DNA from: Actinomyces sp. ICM47
GTDB taxonomy: Bacteria; Actinomycetota; Actinomycetes; Actinomycetales; Actinomycetaceae
NCBI RefSeq assembly: GCF_905370305.1
Contig: NZ_CAJPJX010000001.1
Length of the DNA stretch: 64,000 bases
Direction: 5' to 3' (one strand)
The translations under genes and the position numbers were made by a program. Each line of letters opens with the position of its first letter. Position 1 is the stretch's first letter. Of the stretch, positions 1 to 9,086 are shown piece by piece. Below the pieces are notes generated by a model. It did no database searches. It was not told where the DNA came from and worked only from the letters and a program-made list of their open reading frames with translations.

Positions 1-1524
1 GCGATGCGAGGTCGCCACGGCCTCGTCCTGAGGAACGCCAGCCATCATGAGACCCAAGACATCACGCTCCGTATCCGCAGGCACGATGCCAACGATGCGA
101 CCGCGATACATGACGGCGATCCGGTCGGCCAGCGCCACAACCTCGTCGAGTTCCGACGAAATCAGCAGCACCGCGCACCCCTGGTCGCGCACGTCCACGA
201 TCCTGCGGTGAATAAACTCGATCGACCCAACGTCGACGCCGCGCGTAGGCTGGTTGACGACCAGCAGTTTCAGATCCCGCGACATTTCGCGCGCAACGAC
301 AACCTTCTGCTGATTACCGCCCGACAGGGAGGAAATTGGGTCAGTGATCGACGTCAGGCGGATGTCGTATTCCTCCTGTTTCTCATGCGCGTAGCGAGCA
401 ACCGCTCCCAGCTTGCGCGACGGACCCCAGGCAAACTCGGGCGCATTAAACTGGTCGAGGACCAAGTTGTCAGCAATGGAGAAAGAGGACACCATACCGT
501 CTGTCATACGGTCTTCGGGAACGAACCCAACCCCAGATTGCAGTGACTTTCGAGGATTTGCGCGAGTAATATCCCTTCCCTCGAGGGTGATCGTACCGCT
601 ATCGGGAGTACGCAGGCCAAGGATCACCTCCGCAAGTTCGCTTTGACCGTTGCCCTGCACGCCGGCAACCGCGAGGACCTCACCACGCTGAACCCTGCAT
701 GACACATGATCAAGTTCGGGCACGCCACCCGCACCTAGCAGGGAGACATCATCCAAGACGAGGCCACCTCGGCGAAGCCGAGCCGGTTCCTTATCGACGC
801 GCAAAAGAACCGGGCGCCCCACCATCTGCGAGGCCAGCGAAGCCTCAGAGTCCGTCGGGGAGGCCGTGCCGACGACCTTTCCACGACGGATCACCGTGAT
901 ATCGTCAGCAACTGCACGCACCTCGCGCAGCTTGTGAGTAATGAAGACAATCGACGTCCCCGCATCGGCGAGCTGACGCATGATCTTCATCAGTTCATCC
1001 GTCTCTTGCGGTGTCAGCACGGCCGTCGGTTCGTCCAGAATCAGGACCTTCGCTTGACGCGACAGAGCCTTGACGATCTCGACGCGCTGCTGCGCACCGA
1101 CCGGCAGATCCTCGATGAGCGCATCTGGATCCAGGTCGAAGCCGAAGCGCGCCGATACTTCGCGCACCGTCTGACGCGCGCGCTCACGGCTAATAATGCC
1201 CGCAGGGCCAGTCGGCTCATAACCAAGTGCGATCGATTCCGCGACCGTGAACACCGGGATCAGCATGAAGTGCTGATGCACCATACCAATGCCCGCAGCA
1301 ACAGCGTCACCCGGGCCTTTAAATGTCACGGGCTCACCGTCGATGACGATCTGTCCCTCGTCAGGCTGGTGCATCCCGTATAGGACGTTCATCAGCGTGG
1401 ACTTTCCCGCACCATTTTCACCAAGCAGGGCGTGAATGTGCCCTTCCTCGATCGTCAGATCGATCGAGTCGTTAGCAGTGAGGGGGCCAAACCTTTTCGT
1501 GATCCCCCGCAGCTCTAGTTTCAT
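1..1524 (-). CDS. ABC transporter ATP-binding protein (tandem-ATPase type that partners BMP-family binding proteins). C-terminal part runs off the window start.
   Basis: Minus-strand translation from the ATG at 1524 reads MKLELRGITKRFGPLTANDSIDLTIEEGHIHALLGENGAGKSTLMN with Walker A GENGAGKST. The frame stays open to position 1 and is absent from the ORF track because no stop lies inside the window. It sits downstream of the BMP lipoprotein genes on the same strand. Confidence 0.8.
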   Translation of the reverse strand, partial: MKLELRGITKRFGPLTANDSIDLTIEEGHIHALLGENGAGKSTLMNVLYGMHQPDEGQIVIDGEPVTFKGPGDAVAAGIGMVHQHFMLIPVFTVAESIALGYEPTGPAGIISRERARQTVREVSARFGFDLDPDALIEDLPVGAQQRVEIVKALSRQAKVLILDEPTAVLTPQETDELMKIMRQLADAGTSIVFITHKLREVRAVADDITVIRRGKVVGTASPTDSEASLASQMVGRPVLLRVDKEPARLRRGGLVLDDVSLLGAGGVPELDHVSCRVQRGEVLAVAGVQGNGQSELAEVILGLRTPDSGTITLEGRDITRANPRKSLQSGVGFVPEDRMTDGMVSSFSIADNLVLDQFNAPEFAWGPSRKLGAVARYAHEKQEEYDIRLTSITDPISSLSGGNQQKVVVAREMSRDLKLLVVNQPTRGVDVGSIEFIHRRIVDVRDQGCAVLLISSELDEVVALADRIAVMYRGRIVGIVPADTERDVLGLMMAGVPQDEAVATSHR

Positions 1525-1616
1525 TCCTTCGACCTTCCCCAACACCGGTGGGCGATAGGCTCCCGACACCCGGGTGGGGCTGCGGCCAACTCGCTGACAG
1601 CCCCACCGCTGGGAGA

Positions 1617-6516: not shown

Positions 6517-6581
6517 GGTGGTGTATTCCTTTCTGAGCCGCGGCAATACCGCGTCACGTGGTGAATGGGATGAGTGGGTGC

Positions 6582-9086
6582 TTAGGGATGCCGGGAGCCG
6601 CGGCGCGCCGCGCTCCGCGTAGCGATGCCCGCGAGGGCGAGGAGAACGCCGACCCAGAGCGGGGCCGCCGCGTCCACGCCCGTGCGGGCGAGGGAAGCGC
6701 GCGCATTCGCCGGCGTCATGCGCCGTGAATTTCCAGCGTTCTTTCGTCTTCCTCGGGACGAGGACGTGGCCGGGTACCCGGTGCCGCGCGGCGTCAGGGC
6801 ACCGGCGCTAGGTGACGGCGCGGATCCCGGCACTGACGAGGTGCTGGGCGTCGGGTTGGTTCCCGACGACGGGCCAGCTCCCAGCAGGTTCAACCCGATG
6901 ATCTCGGGGTTGTGATCGGAGGAGCGGTATGGGTCCTCGGCCTCGACGGCCAGGTGGGCGTTCATGCCCGCGCGCGAGTATTCGAAAGCGATGGATTCCT
7001 GGGCGTTGACGGCCCAGCTGGTGACCCCCGCCAGGAGAGGCTTCGCGGCGGTATTGGCAAACACGTGATCGAGGGAACCGGAGCGGCCCGAGTACACATA
7101 GGACGCTTCACCCCGGCCGGAGACGCGCTCCCACCCAGCACCCTCCAGGGTCGTAACCGGGTCTTCCTGGGAGTAGGAGTTGAAGTCGCCGACGAGCAGG
7201 GTTGGTTTGTCAGCGAATTGAGCGGCAAAGGAAGCGAGCGCGGTGGCTTGGGCGACACGGATCGCGTTCGCGTTCCCCTGCCCGTCCCCGCTATCGGTAT
7301 TGCCCTCGCCCGCGCCCTCCGGCACGGACCCCTTGGACTTGAAATGGTTGGCGATCACCACGAAGGAGGGTACAGCCGTCTTCTCGTCGCTCGTGCGCGC
7401 GAACTCCTGGGCCAGGGGTTGACGCGCGAGGTCCCGAAACGCCGGATCGTCATGGATCCGAGAGGGGCCGACGGGGGTGACCATCGCAGTTTTGTAGATG
7501 AATGCGACGCGGATGACGTCCTCATCTGCGGGAACGACCGGCGGTGAGGGAACGAACGCCCACACGTTCGGCCCCACGGCCTCGTTCAGAGCCGCCACGA
7601 GGCGCGCCAGGGTCGCATCACGATCCGTCCCTACGCCCACGGCGAGCGGGTTTTCAATCTCTTCGAGGGCGACCACGTCGGCCCCCAGAGCGTTGATCGC
7701 GGACACGATCTTCGCCTCCTGGGTGGCGAAAGCCTCGCGCGAGTACGCGCCGCGCACCTTGCACTTCTTGGCCGTCACGAAGGCCCCCGTGCGGTCGGGA
7801 TAGCCCATGCATCCGGCCTCGTCGACGCCCAGGTCGGAGAAGTAGTTGAGGACGTTAAAGGTCGCCACACGTGTATCCCCGCCGACCGTGGGCGCGCTCG
7901 GCCGCTGCCCGGTGACGGTCACGGGGGCACGGTCAGGATGCCCCGCGACCAGCGAGGTCGGCTGAAAGACCCAGGACCCATGCCTCGGCTCCAAGACGAC
8001 GGGAGCGGAGAACGTCACGTGATATCCGACGCGGGCGGGTGCCCCATTCGCCAGGTACGCGTAGGGCACCTCGGTCGCCGCGCCCTTCAGCAGGTTCGTG
8101 TTCGTCCCGTCGTCGAGGGTGATCACCCGCGCGGCGTTGGCCGCCTCATAGTTGCGCGCGGCCTGCCCCGGAACAACCACGTCGGTCGCGGCGCGCAGCG
8201 GCTCCGTGCCCGGTGTGAGCGCCAGCGTCCCATACTGATTCGCCGCATAGTTGTCCGTGATCGTCCACGTTCCCTGCGGATCCAGCAGCATCGACTCGTA
8301 GGCCTCCGCCTGCCCATCCACAGGGACACCGGTGACCGGAGTGGGAGCCACGGCCTCACACCCGTCTACCTGCGTAAATCCGGTGGCAGCCAACTGGGTC
8401 AGGCTCGACGGGTTGGACGTCGCGGTCATCACGGGGAACTCCCCGACCGTGCCACTCACGCGCACGCACGTCCCAACCGCAGGGATCCGACCGTTCTTCC
8501 CCGCGTAGATGAAGAGAGCGTCCGAGCGCGCCCGCCCCTCATCCCACACGCCGCCACTGCCCGGCGTCTGAATCGTGTACCCATCCAAGGTAGCTGCCAG
8601 CCCAGACTCACCTACCGGATACGCCGCAGTCACGACACCAACCGTCGTCACGGTGGCACCCACCATCGCCGAGTCGTCTCCCTCCCCCACCGCCTGAATC
8701 TCCGGGATTGGGGTATCGACGGTCGCACCGTTTGGCGCGGCGTCCTCAGCAGTTGCAACCGCACGCCCAGCGGCACCTTCCGGGGTCGCGGCCACGCTCG
8801 CGGGCACGCCCCCAGTCGTCTCGACGTCGGCGGAAGGCTGAGAGCCACGGCTCTCGGGGGCGCTCAGCTGCCCCTCCCCCGTCATTGACGAGGCCGACTG
8901 CACCTGGGTGATTCCGCTCCCCTGAGCAGTGGGCGTACCGGATGTTTCAGGAGCACGTTGTTCTCCCGACTGAGCAACCTGCGCGAGTTCCGCCCCGGCG
9001 TCAGTCGCCCAAGCGGCAGGAACAAGCCCCACCGCGGACAGCGTGAGTACGCCGAGTACAGCTAACGACCGAGTCCCGCGCGTCAT
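6582..9086 (-). CDS. Cell-wall-anchored extracellular nuclease (ExeM/NucH-like endonuclease/exonuclease/phosphatase family) with a C-terminal LARTG sorting signal
   Basis: N-terminal signal peptide MTRGTRSLAVLGVLTLSAVGLVPAAWA. EEP-fold motifs present: ATFNVLNYF, ALEEIEN, LVGDFNSY, SDHNP. The C-terminus is LARTGVDAAAPLWVGVLLALAGIATRSAARRGSRHP. Confidence 0.75.
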   Translation of the reverse strand: MTRGTRSLAVLGVLTLSAVGLVPAAWATDAGAELAQVAQSGEQRAPETSGTPTAQGSGITQVQSASSMTGEGQLSAPESRGSQPSADVETTGGVPASVAATPEGAAGRAVATAEDAAPNGATVDTPIPEIQAVGEGDDSAMVGATVTTVGVVTAAYPVGESGLAATLDGYTIQTPGSGGVWDEGRARSDALFIYAGKNGRIPAVGTCVRVSGTVGEFPVMTATSNPSSLTQLAATGFTQVDGCEAVAPTPVTGVPVDGQAEAYESMLLDPQGTWTITDNYAANQYGTLALTPGTEPLRAATDVVVPGQAARNYEAANAARVITLDDGTNTNLLKGAATEVPYAYLANGAPARVGYHVTFSAPVVLEPRHGSWVFQPTSLVAGHPDRAPVTVTGQRPSAPTVGGDTRVATFNVLNYFSDLGVDEAGCMGYPDRTGAFVTAKKCKVRGAYSREAFATQEAKIVSAINALGADVVALEEIENPLAVGVGTDRDATLARLVAALNEAVGPNVWAFVPSPPVVPADEDVIRVAFIYKTAMVTPVGPSRIHDDPAFRDLARQPLAQEFARTSDEKTAVPSFVVIANHFKSKGSVPEGAGEGNTDSGDGQGNANAIRVAQATALASFAAQFADKPTLLVGDFNSYSQEDPVTTLEGAGWERVSGRGEASYVYSGRSGSLDHVFANTAAKPLLAGVTSWAVNAQESIAFEYSRAGMNAHLAVEAEDPYRSSDHNPEIIGLNLLGAGPSSGTNPTPSTSSVPGSAPSPSAGALTPRGTGYPATSSSRGRRKNAGNSRRMTPANARASLARTGVDAAAPLWVGVLLALAGIATRSAARRGSRHP

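Follow-up and report, generated by a model that had tools for sequence, protein, structure and literature searches.

The 64,000-nt stretch of contig NZ_CAJPJX010000001.1 of Actinomyces sp. ICM47 that was analyzed here (the window) begins with a cluster of five genes that very probably encodes a system for scavenging extracellular nucleic acids at the cell surface. All five genes are present on the minus strand at the place where an initial annotation, made from the sequence alone, had put them, and in the order of transcription they encode a nuclease, a 5'-nucleotidase, two lipoproteins of the BMP family (BMP_A and BMP_B) and an ABC ATPase. The genes and the regions between and upstream of them are as follows:

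9087–9313, minus strand: promoter and leader of the nuclease/nucleotidase unit
6582–9086, minus strand: nuclease of the ExeM/NucH family, 834 amino acids
4240–6546, minus strand: 5'-nucleotidase-family phosphoesterase, open reading frame (ORF) of 768 amino acids, 758 if translated from the probable ATG at 6516
4081–4239, minus strand: nucleotidase/BMP_A intergenic region
2995–4080, minus strand: BMP_A, 361 amino acids, lipobox LTGC
2775–2994, minus strand: BMP_A/BMP_B intergenic region
1617–2774, minus strand: BMP_B, ORF of 385 amino acids, 361 from the probable start at 2702, lipobox LAGC
1–1524, minus strand: ABC ATPase with a double nucleotide-binding domain (NBD; CUT2 type), its C-terminus lying beyond the window edge

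The activities, cellular locations, co-regulation and physiological role that we infer for these proteins can be set out as a single scheme. The nuclease and the 5'-nucleotidase would be exported by Sec, after which a housekeeping class E sortase would link their LARTG signals to the peptidoglycan. Near the cell, the EEP nuclease would cut DNA, and probably RNA, to 5'-phosphorylated oligo- and mononucleotides, and the 5'-nucleotidase would strip the 5'-phosphate from these to give (deoxy)nucleosides and inorganic phosphate. BMP_A and BMP_B, both tethered to the membrane, would capture the nucleosides and pass them to the ABC importer, whose permeases are expected just beyond the window, and, given that the operon continues in relatives to a cytidine deaminase and a pyrimidine-nucleoside phosphorylase, the nucleosides would then enter salvage or catabolism. 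The payoff would be nucleosides (base plus sugar) together with phosphate. The initial annotation had proposed essentially this route, from extracellular DNA (eDNA) through 5'-nucleotides and nucleosides to import, and we regard it as well supported by inference because of the family membership of the proteins, the ligand pockets of the BMP lipoproteins, the nucleoside-catabolic genes that follow in relatives, the conservation of the enzyme pair and the fusion of the two enzymes in other genera. What was directly observed, as described below, is the order of the genes, the families to which their products belong, the conserved catalytic and ligand residues, the synteny and the fusion.

The nuclease is, as judged by profile matches, a full member of the ExeM/NucH family, which has already been named by NCBI. 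It matched NCBIfam model NF033681 at 544.6 bits (curated cut-off, 300 bits) over residues 149–734, covering positions 2–546 of the 546 in the model, and also passed the Pfam model for the EEP domain (Exo_endo_phos, PF03372) with 31.4 bits. The protein begins with a signal peptide (residues 1–27, cleaved after AWA and before T) and a low-complexity linker of roughly 100 residues (~28–125), followed by the ExeM/NucH core (149–734), in which the EEP domain occupies residues ~405–730, a Pro/Ser/Thr stalk, and a C-terminus made up of LARTG (799–803), a hydrophobic membrane-spanning stretch and an Arg-rich tail. The signal peptide, the two family matches and the LARTG motif uphold the description of this protein as a secreted EEP-family nuclease with a sorting signal. 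In an alignment of 12 nuclease sequences (A1), residues N411, E475/E476, D634, N636, D673-H674 and D724-H725 were invariant and H581 nearly so, and the motifs FNVLN, LEEIEN, NHF, GDFN, LDH and SDH were unchanged; these residues were matched to ExeM E521, H642, N699, D822 and H823 by motif order and spacing only. A Pfam search of the window nuclease gave no match to the lamin-tail domain (LTD, PF00932), which NF033681 does not require. Sequence and profile searches of solved structures with the nuclease found nothing, and the single match returned for the EEP domain alone, to a ribosomal protein, was judged to be spurious.

The second enzyme had been described as a UshA/AdsA-like 5'-nucleotidase with a LARTG anchor, and the family and the LARTG signal stand, but the protein is not an ortholog of UshA/AdsA. 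It matched Pfam 5_nucleotid_C (PF02872) at 124.7 bits, and the C-domain occupies residues 379–532, between a signal peptide and divergent metallophosphatase domain on one side and an immunoglobulin-like/low-complexity stalk (~560–730) on the other; LARTG at 733–737 is followed by a hydrophobic stretch and RR. Residues R381, N413, R418, F440, F520 and D526 align with R354, N390, R395, F417, F500 and D506 of CD73, so that the phosphate-binding Arg residues and the base-stacking Phe clamp are retained. The catalytic domain likewise retains the DxH, GD and GNHExD motifs, with D55, H57, D98, N131 and the H132/D135 dyad present. Against the models for streptococcal LPXTG 5'-nucleotidases, NF047875 and NF040549, the protein scored 126.2 and 66.9 bits relative to a cut-off of 1050 bits, and its likeness to surface enzymes of the S5nA/Nt5e/AdsA type therefore appears to be functional, not orthologous.

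Both enzymes fit the substrate pattern of class E sortases, namely LAXTG, a hydrophobic segment and a basic tail, LAXTG being the motif of that class (PMC5148588). The sorting signals of the orthologues are of the form LA[RKSNA]TG, with a few LPxTG, and both proteins would accordingly be wall-anchored by a housekeeping class E sortase.

The binding proteins and the ATPase have the features of a nucleoside importer. BMP_A and BMP_B matched Pfam Bmp (PF02608) at 161.3 and 162.7 bits, and the best solved relatives of BMP_A (7x0r, 9q1u, 6y9u, 6shu and 2fqw; E-values 5.5e-32 to 1.9e-14) are all nucleoside binders, the nearest of them having been crystallized with guanosine (PMC9601137). The nucleoside pocket of BmpA is formed by F27, N28, D98, F151, F176, V224, D225 and K242 (PMC13325309). 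The equivalent residues are F55, N56, D127, F183, F220, V267-D268 and K288 in BMP_A and F79, N80, D151, F207, F244, V291-D292 and K312 in BMP_B (numbered on the 385-residue ORF from 2774), and neither paralog has lost the aromatic sandwich or the Asp/Asp/Lys set that binds ribose in BmpA, BmpD and PnrA. We considered different ligands for the two paralogs, for which there is no evidence because their pocket residues are identical. The ATPase had NCBIfam matches to double-NBD ATPases of the sugar/nucleoside type. A putative B6 ABC transporter was also considered and rejected, as the binding proteins scored 68.7 and 80.3 bits and the ATPase 481.8 bits against models (NF047927/NF047930) with cut-offs of 400 and 670 bits. 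In two related loci on contigs that reach farther (L008 and L002) the region 3' of the ATPase gene holds two BPD_transp_2 permease genes, a cytidine deaminase gene (cdd) and a pyrimidine-nucleoside phosphorylase gene (pdp), with overlapping stop and start codons. The presence of these genes in relatives gives strong contextual support to the prediction that the transporter imports nucleosides.

The initial annotation had also spoken of duplicated, paralogous BMP lipoproteins beside their ATPase. They are indeed paralogs, each with a Bmp domain and a lipobox, but at ~70% identity they do not represent a fresh duplication. BMP_B is 77–80% identical to the BMP proteins of relatives with a single copy and BMP_A 66–70%, BMP_A is a long-branch outlier in a neighbor-joining tree, and the extra copy is present only in the window and in loci L001 and L002. 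These comparisons indicate that BMP_B is orthologous to the BMP gene that related species have in one copy, and that BMP_A is a lineage-specific, fast-evolving extra paralog.

To place the cluster among its relatives, 80 loci were compared, taken from a scan of one genome per species. The closest nuclease was that recorded for Actinomyces sp. ICM47 (91% identity), followed by those of Pauljensenia and Schaalia species, which places the organism among the Schaalia/Pauljensenia bacteria of the mouth or gut. In 28 of the 80 loci, all from Actinomycetaceae, the nuclease gene is followed by a separate, adjacent nucleotidase gene, while in 33, from Micrococcales, both enzymes are encoded in a single ORF of ~1,340–1,750 amino acids; in two the order is reversed, with the nucleotidase gene immediately 5' of that for the nuclease, and in the remaining 17 there is no nearby nucleotidase or the contig is too short. 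Genera with the fused ORF are Leifsonia, Cryobacterium, Cellulosimicrobium, Sanguibacter, Oerskovia, Microbacterium, Georgenia and Promicromonospora, and Pfam confirmed the domain order LTD, EEP, Metallophos, 5_nucleotid_C for four of these loci, as well as for three of the five long global cluster representatives that were scanned. We consider this "Rosetta-stone" fusion to be the best evidence that both enzymes act on one pathway. The BMP and ABC ATPase genes are next to the pair, making all four parts of the block, in 21 of the 28 adjacent loci, and the block is kept in L013, L014, L019 and L021 despite different upstream genes. Such recurrence in 21 further loci, some with different flanks, argues that the arrangement is more than chance. 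Among the recurrent neighbors of the fused genes, only lineage-specific genes were found, and no phosphate or nucleoside genes recurred. In the literature that was searched, we came across neither the Actinomycetaceae cluster nor the ExeM/NucH–nucleotidase fusion.

Several variants of the fused and single-ORF forms were seen in the same comparison. The fusion ORFs span L038–L079 (for example L038:9263–13996), and most of the proteins are without a sortase signal, those of L065 and L069 ending in LARTG/LAQTG. Among the cluster representatives there are variants in which PKD or SLH domains occur, or in which the EEP domain is replaced by one that is phytase-like. In Gleimia coleocanis and an Actinomycetaceae metagenome-assembled genome (MAG), two tandem copies of the ExeM/NucH nuclease are carried in one ORF (L035:6962–12349 and L036:3276–8492) of ~1,740–1,800 amino acids that has an LPxTG signal and no nucleotidase beside it. 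In another Actinomycetaceae MAG (L015:10001–14782), nuclease and nucleotidase form a single ORF of 1,593 amino acids, although every close relative has two distinct genes; the read-through is probably an assembly or frameshift artifact, or else a very recent fusion.

A scan for terminators and promoters gave few and weak sites, and the operon boundaries were therefore taken from a reading of the intergenic sequence. The nuclease and nucleotidase genes are probably co-transcribed, because the gap between them is 35–65 nt with no terminator. Approximately 100 nt before the nuclease ATG (~9087–9190, minus strand) are almost invariant in 13 Schaalia/Pauljensenia loci (alignment A2). This leader contains a hairpin (GGGRCY-N4-RGYCCC) with one compensatory G-C to A-U change in the RNAalifold consensus and a second, small hairpin (CTCAC-GG-TGAG), both just 5' of the ribosome-binding site GAGAGGA, and could be a regulatory leader; it had no Rfam match, and an Rfam E-value scan of window positions 1–16000 found no riboswitch or other RNA family. 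Between the nucleotidase and BMP_A genes (4081–4239), a weak hairpin with TTTT spans the nucleotidase stop codon and is accompanied by a sigma-70-like promoter for BMP_A (TTGACG-18-GATACT), which was aligned with other BMP promoters (A3). In the BMP_A/BMP_B region (2775–2994), BMP_A is followed by a long hairpin rich in GC, then by a 20-bp unit repeated three times in tandem (2861–2920) and by a TTGACA promoter for BMP_B. The 20-bp triplicate is a relic of the 3' end of the nucleotidase gene, and the promoter is the ancestral one.

A short repeated element was noted in the same regions. The 11-mer ATCGTTACCAA, allowing one mismatch at most, lies 5' of the -35 in both BMP promoters, in the three 20-bp units before BMP_B (2861–2920, minus strand) and in the last nucleotidase codons before BMP_A (4247–4257, minus strand), and has one further copy, in the opposite orientation, within the unchanging section of the nuclease promoter (9146–9156, plus strand). 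At this stringency, four of the six matches in the window fall inside the cluster. The element is read in different frames by the window nucleotidase (NT5) and by single-BMP relatives. As a common operator of the three promoters it was set aside, since it is largely the nucleotidase 3' end carried with the BMP duplication; a shared operator is possible.

A number of observations weigh against assigning the whole cluster to one scavenging system. No sortase gene was present among the larger ORFs of the window, and the AlphaFold model of the nuclease, made from the 12-sequence alignment, reached a pLDDT of 33 and was too poor for a fold search. The nuclease/nucleotidase pair and each of the BMP genes are probably separate transcription units under their own promoters, and the promoter-like sites and hairpins between the units weaken the case for co-regulation. 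In A. bovis and S. suimastitidis the enzyme pair has no transporter nearby, and the Micrococcales fusions have no BMP neighbor, which makes the link between pair and importer clade-specific. The remaining points concern the nucleotidase, for which the Metallophos score (17.7) was below the Pfam threshold of 21.5 and in which the site-2 metal ligands H220 and H243 of CD73 are replaced by D244 (AMLDDD) and D265 (GGDTH), so that the site departs from the canonical set at two of seven metal ligands. With a sub-threshold match and Asp at two metal ligands, the metal use, the substrate range and even the activity of the enzyme could differ from those of canonical relatives.

We read the His-to-Asp change as the mark of a functional variant subfamily with a harder, carboxylate-rich metal site, not as decay, because both Asp positions are invariant in orthologs and Asp recurs on a wider scale. 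D244, D265 and the other catalytic motifs were invariant in 27 Actinomycetaceae orthologs, and among 150 global cluster representatives (the 150 best from a library of 1.8 billion proteins) 21 had Asp at motif V (16 as GGDTH and 5 as GGDSH), some of them with His in motif IV. The fused Micrococcales relatives retain His at the metal-ligand positions. A bolder proposal, which we put forward tentatively and with considerable doubt, is that the ExeM/NucH nuclease and the nucleotidase form an obligate two-enzyme DNA-to-nucleoside exo-module, adjacent in Actinomycetaceae and fused in Micrococcales, in which the replacement of His,His by Asp,Asp at the second metal site in Actinomycetaceae could alter the metal requirement or tune the enzyme to the deoxynucleotides released by its partner nuclease; oral Schaalia could then make deoxyadenosine from neutrophil extracellular traps (NETs).

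Three other explanations of the cluster were weighed against nucleic acid scavenging. It is possible, though we lean the other way, that the enzyme pair is mainly a Pho-regulon phosphate scavenger used under phosphate starvation and that the nucleoside importer is a bystander mopping up the by-product. PhoR binds nucH and ushA of Corynebacterium glutamicum, two genes of the phosphate-starvation response (PMC3353115), Bacillus subtilis YhcR and other nucleases recover phosphate from eDNA (PMC11458576), and in Vibrio cholerae Xds/Dns and UshA/CpdB/PhoX serve phosphate acquisition (PMC4714964); the pairs of A. bovis and S. suimastitidis and the fusions of Micrococcales, which occur with no nucleoside transporter, point the same way. 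However, a scan of the window found no Pho genes, neither pst nor pho genes were seen in the window or among recurrent neighbors, a simple look at the conserved promoter only recognized no Pho box, and in Schaalia/Pauljensenia the block is kept with a nucleoside importer, cdd and pdp. The two aims are in any case compatible, since one reaction releases phosphate and nucleosides alike. As to whether phosphate or nucleosides are the main prize, the precedents in C. glutamicum, B. subtilis and V. cholerae stress the former and the Schaalia context the latter.

Immune evasion as the primary role of the pair, through breakdown of NETs and suppression or killing of phagocytes by the adenosine or deoxyadenosine produced, as by Staphylococcus aureus Nuc/AdsA and streptococcal SpnA/S5nA and SWAN/Nt5e, appears unlikely to us. 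The chemistry it needs is identical, oral Schaalia/Pauljensenia are host-associated, a sialidase gene and further genes for host glycans are present elsewhere in the window, and wall-anchored EEP nucleases and 5'-nucleotidases act in this manner in oral and pathogenic streptococci (PMC4118848; PMC3369921; PMC7564053). On the other hand, the nucleotidase falls far from the streptococcal models (126 and 67 bits versus 1050), the pair or fusion is common in Micrococcales of soil, plants and ice that have no neutrophil contact (Leifsonia, Cryobacterium, Cellulosimicrobium), and the physical linkage to a nucleoside importer and catabolic genes fits feeding. The idea of immunomodulatory deoxyadenosine in the initial annotation is thus possible and has no specific support; the importer and catabolic gene context and the spread into soil and ice actinobacteria favor nutrition, with an immune effect that could be a side benefit. 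Still more improbable is that the BMP genes are adjacent by inherited gene order without functional coupling and that the nucleotidase is possibly an altered or inactive binding protein. The separate promoters and intervening hairpins, the several lineages without a transporter beside the pair, the two non-canonical ligands out of seven and the sub-threshold Metallophos score could all be taken in that sense. Nonetheless, the block persists amid different flanking genes, the nucleotide-binding C-domain is intact, and strict invariance of the changed positions and other catalytic motifs in 27 orthologs, together with Asp at motif V in 21 of the 150 representatives, some with His in motif IV, is the pattern of a functional variant.

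Nucleic acid scavenging, the reading that we prefer, makes the cluster essentially the expected actinobacterial version of a known pathway of eDNA use, as comparison with characterized systems illustrates. ExeM of Shewanella oneidensis, Xds of V. cholerae and NucH of Aeromonas and C. glutamicum belong to the same NF033681 family as the window nuclease, with an EEP domain and a family-specific region before it. ExeM is a Ca/Mg-dependent, sugar-unspecific endonuclease that stays cell-associated, held, as is predicted for the window nuclease, by a C-terminal sorting signal (PMC6085458). In ExeM this signal is GlyGly-CTERM, for rhombosortase, as opposed to LAXTG for sortase, and the window nuclease scored 145 bits against the full-length ExeM-GG model (cut-off, 1300). 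ExeM and Xds have an N-terminal lamin-tail domain where the window nuclease has a disordered linker and, unlike ExeM, Xds and NucH, the window nuclease is physically coupled at the gene level to a 5'-nucleotidase.

The adjacent wall-anchored nuclease and nucleotidase had been singled out as notable; such pairing is not unusual, being known in B. subtilis (YhcR and YfkN) and in streptococci. YhcR is a sortase-anchored nuclease that also bears a 5'-nucleotidase domain, which makes it a precedent for nuclease–nucleotidase fusion, and YfkN is a sortase-anchored nucleotide phosphoesterase. Instead of an EEP domain, YhcR has a nuclease of the staphylococcal type with OB folds, and its signals are LPDTS/LPDTA, recognized by a class D sortase whose gene is a direct neighbor. 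To our knowledge, yhcR and yfkN adjoin neither each other nor a nucleoside transporter. They are likewise a wall-anchored pair that reclaims eDNA, and the only two sortase substrates of B. subtilis are one nuclease and one nucleotidase (PMC11458576; PMC3222306).

The same two-step chemistry from DNA to (deoxy)nucleosides is shared by streptococcal SpnA/SWAN/SsnA with S5nA/Nt5e/Ssads and by S. aureus Nuc with AdsA, pairs that have been studied as virulence factors and have no linked importer. The streptococcal nuclease and 5'-nucleotidase genes are, as far as we know, not adjacent. SWAN combines an OB fold, an MnuA-like EEP domain and LPKTG (PMC4118848). The window nuclease scored 31 bits against the MnuA model (cut-off, 185), placing it in a different subfamily from the streptococcal nucleases. 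The genes for the eDNA route of V. cholerae are scattered. That route, from Xds/Dns through UshA/CpdB/PhoX to NupC, follows the same overall pathway (PMC4714964), and Candidatus Izemoplasmatales have "DNA-degradation loci" that likewise bring together genes for nucleases, for phosphohydrolases and for putative ABC transporters of nucleosides (PMC8289736). Relative to both, the window system is distinguished by a Gram-positive actinobacterial envelope, sortase anchoring, an importer of the BMP/PnrA type and the lack of a phosphate transporter in the locus. The BMP lipoproteins share their fold family and pocket residues with PnrA (Treponema pallidum and Streptococcus pneumoniae), BmpA/BmpD (Borrelia), NupN (B. 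subtilis) and BmpA/RnsB (Lactococcus lactis and Streptococcus mutans), whose ABC systems have the same composition of lipoprotein, double-NBD ATPase and two BPD_transp_2 permeases; two substrate-binding paralogs in tandem set the sub-clade of the window apart from them.

Species of Schaalia and Pauljensenia abound as commensals in the mouth and gut, where they live in biofilms rich in eDNA, and occasionally they form abscesses. Conversion of eDNA at the cell surface into importable nucleosides and phosphate would help to explain how they feed in biofilms, and a surface DNA-degrading system could also remodel the biofilm matrix or NETs. The cluster does not alter the general view of how bacteria use extracellular DNA. 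The points most worth following up are the conserved Asp/Asp metal site, a small and testable question of enzymology, and the widespread fusion, which provides clean genomic evidence that the nuclease and nucleotidase families work together and is useful for annotation and for the choice of tractable enzymes.

Upstream of the nuclease gene, and also on the minus strand, guaB3 and guaB flank genes for a DnaQ-like exonuclease and a fructose-6-phosphate aldolase. The other 50 kb of the window holds housekeeping and host-glycan genes. A 304-residue DsbA/thioredoxin-like protein is encoded a few kb from the cluster (17000–17914, plus strand); proteins of this fold family are thiol-disulfide oxidoreductases, which in actinobacteria fold exported proteins. 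Farther along are genes for a 1,228-residue surface protein in which choline-binding repeats are combined with a cadherin-like domain (41845–45531, minus strand), a locus encoding a GH2 beta-galactosidase, a sugar ABC system and a LacI regulator (47637–53235), and a gene for a BNR sialidase with a laminin-G domain (58591–60837, plus strand). The surface protein, the beta-galactosidase locus and the sialidase are consistent with a commensal that forages on host glycans.

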